Below, in pieces: positions 6,969-30,770 of a stretch of DNA of 64,000 nt. The DNA lies in NCBI GenBank assembly GCA_044892525.1, contig CM097885.1:134850001-134914000 (forward strand), read 5' to 3'. Every line of letters starts with the position of its first letter. The stretch's first letter is position 1. This DNA is from Schmidtea polychroa. Lineage: Eukaryota. The notes under the pieces were generated by a model that worked only from the letters and a program-made list of their open reading frames with translations, was not told the origin of the DNA and searched no databases. A program made the translations under genes and the position numbers.

Positions 6969-7163
6969 AATTTTTCGCTATATTTTACAGTTTTATGTTA
7001 TATGGCTACCCTACTTTTATTATATACAAAGTTTATTCGGGTATATATTTACAATTATTATATATACAATTAAATCGATCACAATTCGGTCCTCCTAAAA
7101 CTTTGTATATAATAAAAGTAGGGTAGCCAAATAACATAAAACTGTGAAATATAACGAAAAATT
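6969..7163. repeat. Long inverted repeat / hairpin (66-bp arms, 63-bp spacer)
   Basis: 6969-7034 is the reverse complement of 7098-7163 with 3 mismatches in 66 bp (hand alignment); no TSD seen. Confidence 0.9.
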
Positions 7164-8507
7164 TGGAGTCGTAATCCCTTCTTTTTTAAACGATATTTTG
7201 AAATATGGCGTATCGTCCTTTAAAATCTTTCCGAATTTCTCTTGCGAAATAAACTGAGGTGATCCCGTTCCTAATCCTTCTTGACATTCCGATCTTTTGT
7301 AACACAAGATAACATTATCTGTTTTGAAATATTCTTCATGTATTGTTTTGTTATTTGTCACTGACAAATTGATCCTTACCTTGAACGACCATTCTAGTAC
7401 TTCATCCTACTCGCTTTTACACAATAGGAAGAACAATGACACATGTGTTCCTTCCCCTGTACCGTCTCCATTCAAATAGACTCGTGTTTTCATCTTATAC
7501 CCATTCTTCCATGACAGAAAGGCTGGACTTGATATTGCTCGTACTTTATCATCCTTTGATTCTTGGGTTTTTGTTTTTATTCCCCTCAGTTTCCAGATGA
7601 GTGGGGCTAAGGGTAGTCCTTCTCTGTCTATTACTTCTATTATTTGCTGGTTCCTACGTCTTCTTGTATTTGCTTAAATAGAACAACTTTCTCCATCATT
7701 TATTCTCCAGCTTCTTCGATTGCTTCTCGGGTTAGCACTTTTAGTGAGGCCATTTCCAATTCCATCTGTTGCGATTTTCTTTCGTTTTCCTAGGTTGCCC
7801 TAACCCAAATTTTTTATGTGAAATTATGTTATCTGCGAGATGTTTCGATAGTTCTTCTCGTCGACCCTTGTTTTGACAGCCCCATTTCTCCATTATACAA
7901 TTGATCTTCTTTTTCCCACATTTTTCCAGATGCAATGCTACTTTCACTCTTCCGTTTACTTCTCATTCATTTTGGCATATTTCCATATACTCTAAACGCA
8001 CTTTCTCTTCCTCCACATTTTTATACTCTTCCTGTATTTTCCTCCATACGTCTATCTTCCCGCAATGTTCGCATCTCTCTTGCCTTCCTTCGCATTTTCC
8101 TTCGTGTTCCACTGTTTCGGTTACCTTTATAGTTTGTTGGTATAATTTGCATTTATTGACTTTGCATCTAAATTCCTCCACATGTTGTTTTACTTCCCAT
8201 ATTGTTCCTATCCATACGCAAGGCGCATCCCACCTTCGTCTTTAATATATTCTTTATCGCTGCTTTGTCATGTGTCATCTTTCTATCGTAACTTCTCCAC
8301 ATGTTGGACACTTTTGTGGTCCTTCTTTTGTTAGGTTCTCTATACACTCTCGACACATTCTACATCCCCATTCCGTCTGGTGTGCTTCTTGTAGCAAATT
8401 TAAACACATTCCACATTATATATTTTAGTGCATTCTGATAGCTATTGATGAATTTGTCCGATGAATTCTATGATTTCTTTGAACTCTGTTTTTTGTTAGG
8501 TATTCAT
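7150..8507 (-). pseudogene. traf: Intronless TRAF pseudogene, copy 1 (RING - TRAF zinc fingers - coiled coil - MATH)
   Basis: Hand translation: RING CGMCLNLLQEAHQTEWGCRMCRECIE; zinc fingers (CEHCGK, CPFHFQMQ region on plus = HLEKCGKKKINC..KWGC); MATH LIWKL..SPAFLSWKNGYKMKTRVYLNGDGTGEGTHVSLFFLLCKSE*DEVLEWSF...GSPQFISQEKFGKILKDDT. In-frame stops and frameshifts; no introns needed. Confidence 0.9.
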
Positions 8508-8592
8508 TTCTACAATTATATATACATGTATTTTTTGTTTCTGATTATTTTCACTTTATTTACAATTTATTTACACATTTTTGGGTTCCCTA

Positions 8593-8830
8593 TTACATAC
8601 TCGAGGAATCGGCCTCCTGTCCGCCTTCCTCCTTATTGACTAACCAATCTGATCAATCTTCTGCAGCTTCTTCCTCAATATCTTCTATTATCCTTGTTAT
8701 TTCGTTTTTATGCATCTGACTATAGTGTCTTAGTCGTTCTATTTTTAGCTGCATTTCCTCTATTTTCTTTCTTTGATCTTCTATTATTCTTACGTAGTTG
8801 AACCCTTTATTCATACTTTCAATAAGGGGT
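8593..8830 (-). pseudogene. Coiled-coil ORF-B, copy 1 (homolog of 28320-28679)
   Basis: LIESMNKGFNYVRIIEDQRKKIEEMQ...ED*SDWLVNKEEGGQEADSSSM* aligns with LIESLNKGFNYALIIEDQRMKIEQMQ...EDWSDWLISREDGGQEPDSSSQ*. Confidence 0.85.
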
Positions 8831-8910
8831 TATATACAATTATATACACATGTAAGTTCTCGTTTCTATTAAATTTTACCTAATTTTATTCCTCATAGTT
8901 ATATAATATT

Positions 8911-8928
8911 TATACCGCGCTTATATAC
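8911..8928 (-). promoter_or_regulatory. Conserved TATA-like motif TGTATATAAGCGCGGTAT upstream of ORF-B (copy 1)
   Basis: The same 18-mer occurs at ~28757-28774 upstream of ORF-B copy 2, while flanking DNA has diverged. Confidence 0.5.
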
Positions 8929-28235: not shown

Positions 28236-28319
28236 CTCTACAATTACATACATATATTTCCTATCTAATACAATTTTCATATTTCTATATACATTTATTT
28301 ACACTTTTAGGTTTTTTAA

Positions 28320-28679
28320 TTACTGGCTGGAAGAGTCGGGTTCTTGTCCGCCATCTTCCCTGCTGATTAACCAATCTGACCAATCCTCTATCTCTTCTTG
28401 TTTCATTTCTTCTACTAACCTAATCAATTCTTGTTCCTGTATCTGATTATATCTCGTTAATCGTTCGATTTCTCGCTGCATTTGTTCGATCTTCATCCTC
28501 TGGTCTTCGATTATGAGCGCATAGTTAAATCCTTTGTTTAGACTCTCAATCAGATGTTTTTGTACTGCAATTCCTTGTTCTTGCATATTCGATATTAACT
28601 GTGCTAACATTGCACATTGTTGCTTCCACATTTCCTCCGTTGTAGCATGGTGATTTACATCGTTGTTTATCTGATCCAT
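28320..28679 (-). CDS. Coiled-coil ORF-B, copy 2 (119 aa, unknown function)
   Basis: Intact ORF whose homolog at 8593-8830 lies at the same position relative to TRAF. Confidence 0.65.
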   Translation of the reverse strand: MDQINNDVNHHATTEEMWKQQCAMLAQLISNMQEQGIAVQKHLIESLNKGFNYALIIEDQRMKIEQMQREIERLTRYNQIQEQELIRLVEEMKQEEIEDWSDWLISREDGGQEPDSSSQ

Positions 28680-29216
28680 TTTTTAATTTATACACATTTG
28701 TTAATCTTTGCTTATTTTGATTTTCTTAATTTTATCCATAATAATTTCATAATATTGATACCGCGCTTATATACAGATGTAGTAATACTTTTTATTATGT
28801 TCGTTTTCGATTGTATTCGAGCGCTTATGTAATTGGAGTTATAGTTCGTATATCATTATAAGTGAATATTGTAATTTTGTTATTATGTTGTGTTAAAAAA
28901 AAATATTGTAGTGCCCAGCCGAGTCACCAGTAAAAAAAACTGTCTCGGGACATCTGGGGTGCTTGTGTGTAAATTAAAAAATTTATATCAATTGGATGAA
29001 TAATAACAACAATAAAATAAAATTACAACTTTTATTTACAAAAAGTAAGAACCTTGAAGGGGAGGATGTATCAAAAGTTTGTATTCTGTTGCTTCAGTGG
29101 ATGAAGCTTCAAATCTATTATTTTTCCTTTAGAATTACTGTTCTGTTCGTTTCTGTAATTCGTGGGAAATTGAGAGTTGGAATTCTGATACTTCTGCGAA
29201 TGAGAATCCAAAACTA

Positions 29217-29504
29217 TTATTTCGATTTTAGGATCTTATAATCTGTTCGTTCCTGGAATTCGAAGGAAATGGATAGATAGAAATTCAATGCCTCTTCGAA
29301 TGAGACTTCAAAACTATTATTTCGTTCTTTGTATCTTATAAGCTGTTTACTATGATCTTCGGGAATTTTTACAGATATCCTTGAATGTATGATGACTTCA
29401 AAATCCGTCATTTTATTTAGTGAAACTTTGATATATCTTCTGTTATTTAAGTTTTCAATTTTTAATTCTTCGATTTTTTGTTTGATTATTTTAAAACTTT
29501 TCAA
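29217..29504 (-). CDS. Unknown small ORF with ~35-aa tandem repeat, frameshifted in the second unit
   Basis: RYKERNNSFEVSFEEALNFYLSISFEFQERTD is followed, in another frame, by RS*NRNNSFGFSFAEVSEFQLSISHELQKRTE. Confidence 0.4.
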   Translation of the reverse strand: MKSFKIIKQKIEELKIENLNNRRYIKVSLNKMTDFEVIIHSRISVKIPEDHSKQLIRYKERNNSFEVSFEEALNFYLSISFEFQERTDYKILKSK

Positions 29505-29689
29505 TCTCTATAGTAAACTATTACTATAGAGAATTGCTATATAGAACATTTTGTTGGATTTCGGGGCCATTGATCGAAATAAGTTAAATAATGTTATTCG
29601 TAATTACATTTAAAAAATTATACTAAAACCATTAACATTACATTACACTTTTATATAAATACATACTTTCTACACTTACTTTTTACAGT

Positions 29690-30770
29690 TTATATACAGT
29701 CATAACCCTTTCTTTTTACGCGAGTTTGGAGGTCGCTGAGTATTCCAGGCCTCCACCCGCTCGAACTCGTTGGGGATATAATTATATTCGGGATAGTTTG
29801 GATTGGTAAGAATCTCTTGGATTTGCTCGACCGTATTTTTTGATTCATTTATCCCCGTAAATCACCGCCAGAGGCTTTAGCAGTTTATAATACTTGTTGA
29901 AAGAGGTTTCATTAGCGCTGGCTTATTCTGGCCACAGAGTCGTCGGTGCTTGAGTTTCATGGCTGCTGATGTGGTGTGGTGGAAGCAGATCTCGAAAGTT
30001 CTTTGAACCGCTTTTTGAAATTATTGTTCGCCAGAAAACCCCTGAAAGTTTTTTTATCCATACATAATGGAAAATTTCTTCTCGTTGGAGGTTTAAACCG
30101 TTAATTATTAGGAGATGGATGGTTGTTTCTATGTACTCCATCCCTGAAATATATGCTGGTGTAATCTTTCTCGAGTCGGGGGTTTCTTGCATCTAAACGT
30201 CTAATCACAAATTATTAAGCTTTTTGAATCTTGGTAAATCATTCATTACGAGTTGTTGTTCTATTTTTCCCAGTTTAATTCCTCCACAGATGGTTCGTAT
30301 CTTTTGATGTGGTATGAATGATCTGCTTGAGGATGTAGCGCGGAGAGAACTGCCCACTGGAAACATTTATTATCGTTGTTCTGGACATTAACAATATATT
30401 TACTCGTTATGCTTGTATGGGGTCGTGATAAATGATTTCGATTGGAATGGAGTTGCTTTCCAATCATGGATTTTAATATATTCAAAAGCAACGGAAACCA
30501 TATCGCTTCCAGAAATATAATCGGATTTATTATCTAGTATTTTGTTCAAATCCTTATAAATCTTTTTAATTATAAATTCATTAGGTTTATTGAAGAGATG
30601 AAAAAATCTCCCTGTGATTGATATCCATTAACTTATTATCATTCTTTTCTACAAATAAATCGACTCGGAACTTGACGTTCTTGAATTTTTTAAGGCTAAG
30701 TTCAGAGTCTATGCTCGCATCTTTGTGAAAGAGAATATAATCCTTCACGTTAAGAGACACTGATTGTGGG
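29690..30770 (-). pseudogene. Decayed ORF with Maverick/Polinton-type PolB N-terminal region, followed by the ORF-A tail (WRPG..KRKGYDCI*)
   Basis: Motifs KYIVNVQNNDNKCFQWAVLSALHP, DLPRFKKLNN and IHLLII..HYVWIKKLS match the conserved block upstream of protein-primed PolB in invertebrate Maverick-like elements (from memory, not a database search). Confidence 0.6.

Follow-up and report, generated by a model that had tools for sequence, protein, structure and literature searches.

Burro1 (GYPSM1) and Burro-2, -3 and -4 are giant gypsy-like LTR retrotransposons of Schmidtea mediterranea, described in PMC6431247, which also relays the work of Grohme et al. (2018) and Jurka (2007) on Burro. According to that account, TRAF-domain cargo in Burro is already published, and BCL2-like domains are found among the cargo as well. 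The family described here shares with the S. mediterranea elements, as outlined in PMC6431247, a length above 30 kb, multi-kb LTRs, accessory ORFs and MATH_TRAF cargo, and an ORF1 of ~4,800 amino acids with gag, CCHC, an env between gag and pol, PR-RT-RH-IN and ankyrins. Unlike Burro1/GYPSM1 in that outline, it has no MATH in ORF1 and no IAP ORF, and it carries a complete RING-ZnF-coil-MATH TRAF 3′ of ORF1, whereas the description of Burro names the MATH_TRAF_C domain only. It resembles the Burro-like element of Dugesia tigrina, in which ORF1 is free of MATH_TRAF_C and a separate accessory ORF encodes this domain; that ORF is described as upstream (PMC6431247), whereas the TRAF of our family lies downstream of ORF1. 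Compared by description only, the family may be one of Burro-2, -3 or -4. In our literature search, no paper connected the TRAF expansion with Burro or reported a Burro TRAF of full length; Repbase, or the figures and supplements of Grohme et al., may do so.

We analyzed a window of 64,000 nucleotides from Schmidtea polychroa, in which two TRAF-bearing blocks lie 20 kb apart. Judged by sequence, both are pseudogenised 3′ pieces of a Burro-kind Ty3/gypsy LTR element. Neither TRAF copy is capable of yielding a full protein.

Copy 1
8990..11000, minus strand: C-terminus of the ORF1 polyprotein, ~710 codons (ankyrin region and hydrophobic/TM tail), named ORF-A in the original prediction; stops and frameshifts
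8912..8928, minus strand: spacer motif separating the ORF1 stop from ORF-B, made up of a TATA-like hexamer and then GCGCGGTAT; exact match
8599..8829, minus strand: ORF-B remnant lacking its start (residues 42-118), with 1 stop; 65% identical to the intact relative
7164..8507, minus strand: TRAF pseudogene with RING, zinc fingers, coiled coil and MATH (Pfam RING/zf-TRAF)
6969..7163, no strand: small inverted-repeat insertion at the TRAF 3′ end, foreign to the element; 66-nt arms, 95% complementary
6126..6476, minus strand: remnant of the LTR-internal ORF and so part of the 3′ LTR; 39% identity over 117 aa (tblastn, E 1e-19)

Copy 2
29762..30770, minus strand: decayed piece from the N-terminus of a PolB-like (Polinton-type) repeat adjoining copy 2, outside the cassette
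29647..29761, minus strand: last ~35 ORF1 codons and start of the spacer; 86% identical to the relative over 115 bp (blastn)
28800..29646, no strand: nested dispersed repeat (~850 bp), foreign to the cassette, with 100-bp internal repeats
28758..28774, minus strand: conserved spacer motif; exact match
28320..28679, minus strand: still-open ORF-B of 119 aa with a predicted coiled coil and an acidic end; 74% identity, 0 stops
27408..28235, minus strand: TRAF pseudogene, residues 1-276 only, with RING, zinc fingers and the start of the coil, without MATH (Pfam zf-C3HC4 E 2e-6)

The original prediction saw here two syntenic, diverged TRAF cassettes. Their homology (tblastx E 7e-91), their orientation (both on the minus strand) and their common order of ORF-A tail, spacer motif, ORF-B and TRAF stand; the frame, extent and packing ascribed to them do not, and both TRAFs are broken. 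The ORF-A tail quoted as WRPG..KRKGYDCI before a stop is in a shifted frame; intact relatives have a coding frame that closes with ..EAWNAQRPPSSRI before the stop. Copy 1, placed at ~7150-11020, reaches the LTR-ORF remnant at 6126-6476. Homology in copy 2, which had been extended to 30770, ends at ~29761, and 29762-30770 is without a counterpart in copy 1. The tight packing is broken by the ~850-bp repeat (found at 5 further places with 86-89% identity over 555-729 bp), which separates the ORF-A tail of copy 2 from the motif. The DNA of the two copies is 68.5% identical over 734 bp (E 3e-67), with 82% over 72 bp and 81% over 77 bp in the motif and tail. The spacer motif ATACCGCGCTTATATAC is exact at both 8912 and 28758, and AAGCGCGGTAT occurs in 20 of the 24 rows of the spacer alignment. 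Pfam matched RING and TRAF zinc fingers in both copies.

Decay is evident throughout. In the TRAF of copy 1, 8 stops and at least 2 frameshifts interrupt a sequence that is 42-48% identical to the 462-aa TRAF of the intact relative (E 1e-94); in that of copy 2 there are 4 stops and 2 frameshifts, at 51-64% identity to the relative. ORF-A of copy 1 aligns with residues 2007-2715 of the ORF1 C-part at 37-59% identity (tblastn, E 3e-76) and with the DNA of the relative at 69% over 1254 bp (blastn), and the ORFs between TRAF and LTR are absent from this copy. Because of the frameshifts, six-frame Pfam searches of 9.9-11.1 kb and 29.7-30.9 kb yielded nothing of use. ORF-B matched no Pfam family above cut-off (DUF2096_N fell below it), and its matches in the Atlas were unnamed, with low recognition. 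Alignment of the window at 5.5-7.3 kb with the LTR of the relative yielded weak DNA matches only (best E 0.02), so that the LTR ends and TSD of copy 1 could not be placed; neither copy has recognisable termini or a TSD of its own.

The pieces of both copies all map, in order, onto a young intact relative of 30,746 bp (G000:C1:214162593-214193338), and an alternative that the original prediction had offered, cargo of a giant LTR element, is the correct one. Its LTRs are 4,184 bp each with 1 mismatch, its ends are TGTTGG..CCAACA (TG..CA), and it is flanked by a 4-bp TSD, TTGG. A PBS-like site starting TGG lies 7 nt inside the 5′ LTR, and presumably resembles a tRNA-Pro primer site. ORF1 is one frame of 2091+2720 codons (~4,800 aa), in which Pfam identified Retrotrans_gag, zf-CCHC, Monjiviricetes_fusion, RVP, RVT_1, RNase H, rve and ankyrins, in the order gag-env-PR-RT-RH-IN-ankyrin with env in frame before PR-RT-RH-IN. 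ORF1 is followed on its 3′ side by ORF-B, a full RING-ZnF-coil-MATH TRAF (462 aa) and further ORFs. This TRAF scored 89.5 bits for MATH_2 (cut-off 32) and 22.6 bits for RING (cut-off 21), with zf-TRAF_2 below cut-off; its best PDB matches were TRAF3/TRAF2, and its MATH is closest to TRAF2/3. Pfam detected neither MATH_TRAF_C inside ORF1 nor a BIR domain in ORF1 or the other ORFs of the relative. A sister Burro (L045/L171), with 91% amino-acid identity to the relative in RT and 81% in IN, has MATH inside ORF1 and, 3′ of it, ORF-B-like, TRAF (487 aa) and BIR+RING (IAP) ORFs.

Of 1250 ORF-B candidates in the genome 150 were scored, so that the family has at least 150 copies; 26 are identical, and the 30 best all have an intact TRAF and ORF1 tail. 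With these copies and the LTRs and TSD of the relative, the possibility raised earlier that only two copies exist, with no termini, falls away. We surveyed 31 other family places with 10-kb flanks each. The family ORF1 is directly upstream at 26, with 16 extending back through integrase and RT; ORF-D or later ORFs lie downstream at the remaining five. TRAF dN/dS against a reference was 0.09-0.14 in 15 of 18 copies and 0.10-0.11 in three intact-length copies (dS 0.54-0.71), where all pairs share the one reference and dS is saturated for most; the value of 0.11 between copies 1 and 2 is unreliable because dS is ~4. TRAF is under purifying selection between element sub-lineages, and the replication under selection proposed originally is upheld by this dN/dS of ~0.1. 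A complete TRAF kept at such a ratio in two Burro families provides good evidence of a cargo useful to the element, and this makes the published idea of "tinkering with apoptosis" testable. As the carrier and its TRAF-domain cargo are already in print and both window copies are dead fragments, the surprise is modest.

We hold with high confidence that both blocks are dead, independently inserted 3′ fragments of Burro type, and that the TRAF of intact members was likely captured once from the host and likely damps stress or death signalling. A Burro-type element would have taken up a planarian host TRAF in a single event, its accessory ORFs would be expressed from sub-genomic RNAs, and the TRAF, as an E3 or adaptor, would dampen stress or death signals within the cell in which the element is copied. 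At the accessory ORFs an AG lies just 5′ of the ATG, and each stop is followed by a TGTA[ACT]ATA motif; these features suggest splicing and 3′ processing or translational control. Contigs of a run merely guessed to be RNA, which is no evidence of transcription, matched the 3′ 10 kb of the relative in all 30 bins at 90-99% identity, and no splice joints with GT..AG ends were listed. The pro-survival role is suggested by the domain set and by company of the IAP/BCL2 type.

As to capture, the element TRAFs fall in a single clade (99/98), which joins the planarian TRAFs to the exclusion of other animals (100/100). A C-G-C change at the RING histidine is common to element and planarian host TRAFs, and is also seen in one crinoid TRAF. 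Element and host TRAFs are only 24-32% identical, on long branches; host monophyly has support of 75/90, and the tree does not fix the place of the element TRAF among host TRAFs. Capture by the element is thus likely rather than proven against the reverse direction. A homologue search with the element TRAF returned only 17 unnamed proteins at 23-29% identity and no close relative outside this genome. The planarian host TRAFs Smed-TRAF-2A/B and Dj-TRAF2A, as far as they are described in PMC7586133 and PMC6109357, resemble it in domain order and C-G-C RING and are its sister group in the tree, and some are intronless; unlike the element TRAF, host genes have no cassette context around them.

A broader reading is that Burro elements are complex endogenous retroviruses that would express the captured TRAF (IAP and BCL2-like domains in sister families) from separate sub-genomic RNAs as a survival module of stem or germ cells, and that much of the "TRAF expansion" published for planarians (>120 MATH transcripts) would be element RNAs, not host genes. 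We put this forward only tentatively. It is unlikely, though to be taken seriously, that the TRAF instead serves replication of the element (ubiquitin-dependent polyprotein processing, particle assembly or budding) and not host signalling. Conservation of the RING cysteines and of the whole architecture at dN/dS ~0.1 would fit such a role, and the in-polyprotein MATH of the sister family, beside gag and env, could dock a TRAF coil/MATH partner. However, the company of IAP and BCL2-like domains (the latter from the description in PMC6431247) points to apoptosis control, and the MATH best matches TRAF2/3.

A rival reading, which we consider very improbable, is that the element seeded the host TRAF expansion, with host TRAFs as domesticated cargo. 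Most top MATH matches (123 of 150) lie in frames of at least 600 aa, five host-like TRAFs with the C-G-C RING variant are intronless frames of 454-473 aa, and host monophyly is not starred. Yet none of the 28 host-like MATH domains sampled (from the 30 best of 1484 candidates) is nested in the element clade (100/99). The 10-kb stretches around the five intronless genes contain no ORF-B, ORF1 tail or ORF-D, and one of the five shares 71% identity with Dugesia japonica TRAF2A. Near-paralogues that sit in a cluster on C2 and form a clade make up the largest host-like set, as expected from tandem duplication. The claim that the element explains the TRAF expansion therefore survives for the raw genomic MATH count and fails for host genes. 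By these matches, the element inflates MATH counts, with TRAF copies in the hundreds brought into the genome, and the founding of host TRAF genes is not supported in the sample. Lack of introns, read originally as a sign of mobile cargo, is no such marker, since some ordinary host TRAFs are intronless too. The identity of the cassette is settled. Planarian MATH/TRAF counts, RNAi targets and expression signals can stem from high-copy retroelements. The main text of PMC7586133 contains neither "transpos" nor "retro", and the accessible parts of PMC7586133 and PMC6109357 do not link the MATH/TRAF count to retroelements.

In favour of a cassette of a PolB/capsid DNA virus or Polinton, a PolB-like fragment adjoins copy 2, and several other copies (L049, L064, L104, L161/L162) also have PolB-like frames at a distance of up to 10 kb. 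The fragment at 29762-30770 matches L182 (tblastx E 5e-74) and a frame upstream of a DNA_pol_B_2 frame (tblastn E 3e-4), and has no match to copy 1 or the Burro relative and no direct Pfam match. The junctions vary, however (upstream at different ORF1 positions, or downstream), and in intact copies the cassette is continuous with LTRs, RT and integrase. A Polinton/Maverick or adintovirus, with PolB, packaging ATPase, capsid and TIRs, is refuted by the LTR-bounded relative, and we give it practically no weight. Equally negligible is an old local (segmental) duplication of host retrogenes, for which the copies' common orientation and 20-kb spacing might speak, but which is refuted by hundreds of dispersed relatives and by the tree, where copy 1 pairs with a C3 copy (100/100) and forcing copies 1 and 2 together is rejected (p-AU 1.2e-5). 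Copies 1 and 2 are independent insertions of different sub-lineages.

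Six-frame translation and pairwise alignment bear out the original prediction of two blocks with shared orientation and order; both lie on the minus strand. Copies 1 and 2 align at 68.5% DNA identity over 734 bp, comprising ORF-B (the coiled-coil ORF before TRAF) and the N-terminal half of TRAF (E 3e-67), and also share short stretches at the spacer motif and in the tail of ORF-A (the ORF upstream of ORF-B). The claim of tight packing fails for copy 2, which is broken by a dispersed repeat of ~850 bp. Within the extent predicted for copy 2, 29762-30770 is not homologous to copy 1 and is a decayed PolB-like fragment, although one with no direct Pfam match. 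Both TRAFs are pseudogenes, with 8 stops and at least 2 frameshifts in copy 1, and 4 stops and 2 frameshifts in copy 2, where the gene ends short of the MATH domain.

Cassette features in the window
6126-6476: LTR-ORF remnant, mapped onto the LTR ORF of the reference relative
~7150-11020, minus strand: copy 1 (predicted extent)
8564/8575: TGTA[ACT]ATA motifs
~27370-30770, minus strand: copy 2 (predicted extent; 29762-30770 lies outside the cassette)
28293/28303: TGTA[ACT]ATA motifs

The window pieces all map in order onto a single relative elsewhere in this genome (G000:C1:214162593-214193338, the reference relative), and ORF-A is the end of a polyprotein. Copy 1 grouped with a copy on contig C3 (support 100/100), the window copies are not sisters, and forcing them together was rejected (p-AU 1.2e-5); the two are separate insertions of different sub-lineages.

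The reference relative is complete, 30,746 bp long. Its 4,184-bp LTRs have a single mismatch, it has TG..CA ends and a 4-bp target duplication, and a sequence that starts with TGG and resembles a primer site lies just inside the 5' LTR. Its single open frame (2091+2720 codons) encodes Retrotrans_gag, CCHC knuckles, a Monjiviricetes-type fusion glycoprotein, protease, RT, RNase H, integrase and ankyrin repeats. This giant frame, ORF1, is followed by ORF-B (119 aa, without assignable family), a 462-aa TRAF, another three ORFs and, within the LTR, one more. The TRAF has RING, zinc fingers, coil and MATH, and its top PDB matches are TRAF3 and TRAF2. The search for termini yielded LTRs, target duplication and integrase, and what had been listed as an alternative, cargo of a giant LTR element, is borne out by this LTR-bounded relative. 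When the genome was searched at the DNA level, 40 candidates were scored and yielded 42 matches. We read the 10-kb flanks at 31 other match places (all but one more place and the seven copies of a single segmental array); ORF1 of the family lies directly upstream at 26, 16 of which reach back through integrase and RT, and the remaining five keep downstream accessory ORFs.

The window's family is a Burro family. Burro/GYPSM1 exceeds 30 kb and its ORF1, of 4,873 aa, includes env in frame along with MATH_TRAF_C, BIR and ankyrin motifs, and a Dugesia tigrina relative has MATH_TRAF_C in a separate upstream ORF, according to the portions consulted of PMC6431247; the consulted portions of PMC11410931 mention Burro only for its size. 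A sister element in this genome (L044-L172) matches Burro/GYPSM1, having 4.77-kb LTRs and, in a frame of 4,791 aa, MATH placed between gag and env. Against the window's family its RT shows 91% identity and its integrase 81%. Located 3' of its ORF1 are, as separate ORFs, an ORF-B homologue, a second full TRAF (487 aa) and a BIR+RING IAP (TRAF and IAP at L171:6519-9810, G000:C1:203.54 Mb). This 3' TRAF is full-length in 88/88 scored copies, at 99-100% identity. Unlike Burro1 proper, the window's family is without MATH in ORF1 and without BIR, and it is possibly one of Burro-2/3/4. The feature is real; the carrier is a known kind of element and TRAF-domain cargo is known. What is added to the Burro description consulted is the full-length downstream TRAF, the selection on it and its separation from host TRAF genes.

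The family extends well beyond two copies. ORF-B alone gave 150 scored matches among 1250 candidates, at 70-100% identity; each of the four large contigs has some of them, and 26 of the 150 are identical. Part of the family is young, since all 30 of the best ORF-B loci keep an intact TRAF and ORF1 tail. Pairwise against the reference, TRAF dN/dS is 0.09-0.14 in 15/18 copies, three decayed copies reach 0.26-0.36 (a further two loci had too little TRAF and were dropped), and ORF-B dN/dS is 0.04-0.16 in 15/20, with dS not computable in five; dS is saturated in most of these pairs, and the pairs are non-independent. The three long copies with dS of 0.54-0.71 give 0.10-0.11 for TRAF, and the window copies 0.24 and 0.12. 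The predicted replication under selection is supported by these values. At G000:C1:152.86-153.50 Mb, some nine near-identical truncated cassettes with the same ORF-B stop were amplified as a segmental array, with a small RING ORF on the opposite strand after several of them.

A MATH_2 search gave 1484 candidates, of which 150 were scored; the ranking favours uninterrupted domains, so the counts are not genome-wide shares. The match lies in an open frame of at least 600 aa in 123 (65 in frames of exactly 4,791 aa; three of the 123, on checking, proved to be Burro ORF1). The other 27 and one flank match made up 28 host-like rows. The MATH tree places 18 family TRAFs in a single clade (100/99; one family row was too short and was skipped); its sister, unstarred, is the ORF1 MATH (81/93), and all 28 host-like rows fall outside it. 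The suggestion that the element helps explain the TRAF expansion applies to the raw number of genomic MATH domains only; among the host-like rows sampled, none is placed as a descendant of the element TRAF. With full-length TRAFs, the element proteins of both Burro families form one clade (99/98), joined with planarian host TRAFs against 11 TRAFs from other animals (100/100); host monophyly is at 75/90, and long branches are present. A RING histidine-to-Cys change is common to element TRAFs, planarian host TRAFs and one crinoid protein. The phylogeny separates element TRAFs, but the intronless state does not, being found in five host-like TRAFs (454-473-aa frames) without cassette neighbours, one of them 71% identical to D. 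japonica TRAF2A.

Intronless host-like TRAFs
G000:C2: 16.19, 16.28, 29.21 and 29.22 Mb
G000:C4: 15.01 Mb

The simplest reading is that a Burro ancestor captured a planarian TRAF, a direction that is inferred. Between 121 and 282 MATH transcripts have been reported, and retroelements as their source are not mentioned in the portions consulted of these papers (PMC6109357, PMC7586133); nor did the literature searched contain a paper linking planarian MATH/TRAF expansion to retroelements. A cluster of host-like TRAF paralogues (L071-L099; G000:C2 ~114.7-121.5 Mb and 3-5 Mb) probably represents intron-containing tandem duplicates; MATH lies there in frames of 179-206 aa, and RING-like matches are located 0.6-1.3 kb upstream.

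The element retrotransposes via the usual LTR route, as its young identical LTRs and dispersed copies show, and the accessory ORFs, sitting behind the ORF1 stop, would need RNAs of their own. The spacer before ORF-B carries AAGCGCGGTAT after a TATA-like hexamer in 20/24 aligned rows, and AG stands 0-2 bases ahead of the ORF-B and TRAF start codons in most aligned rows. These sequences are compatible with an internal promoter or with spliced leaders. TGTA[ACT]ATA follows each stop. On the sense strand of the reference relative it is present in 5/5 inter-ORF spacers (G000:C1:214167670-214171824; 9 matches in 712 bp) and has zero occurrences in the 14.4-kb ORF1; the shuffle mean was 0.5 and 0/5000 crude shuffles were as high, for a pattern chosen after alignment. 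It occurs likewise in the sister family's spacers (L171, L172), and it resembles a Pumilio element, a UGUA+AAUAAA 3'-processing signal or a forkhead site. As a predicted ubiquitin ligase or adaptor, the TRAF would keep its host cell alive while the element replicates, acting alongside the IAP- and BCL2-type cargo of sister families. The main rival to this host-survival role is that TRAF serves the element's own protein processing.

The window holds further elements. A small Ty3/gypsy element (49242-56894), apparently intact, has two long frames, and its 777-bp LTRs are identical; another LTR-ORF homologue (61718-61912) lies between the two units of a 198-bp direct repeat (61357/63803). Around copy 1 (1500-5900, 11400-15100, 17017-17721) are a decayed gypsy element, pieces of hAT-like transposase and a piggyBac-like frame, recognised by eye in the translations and with RT/IN matches as well. 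Host genes, again by eye, are a SIX-type homeodomain frame (20007-20765) and an ankyrin-repeat gene (35183-35737 and 39745-40887). Elsewhere in the genome, PolB-encoding repeats of several diverged families (DNA_pol_B_2 with Endonuclease_7; L040, L049-L050, L064, L161) adjoin long inverted repeats and tandem arrays.
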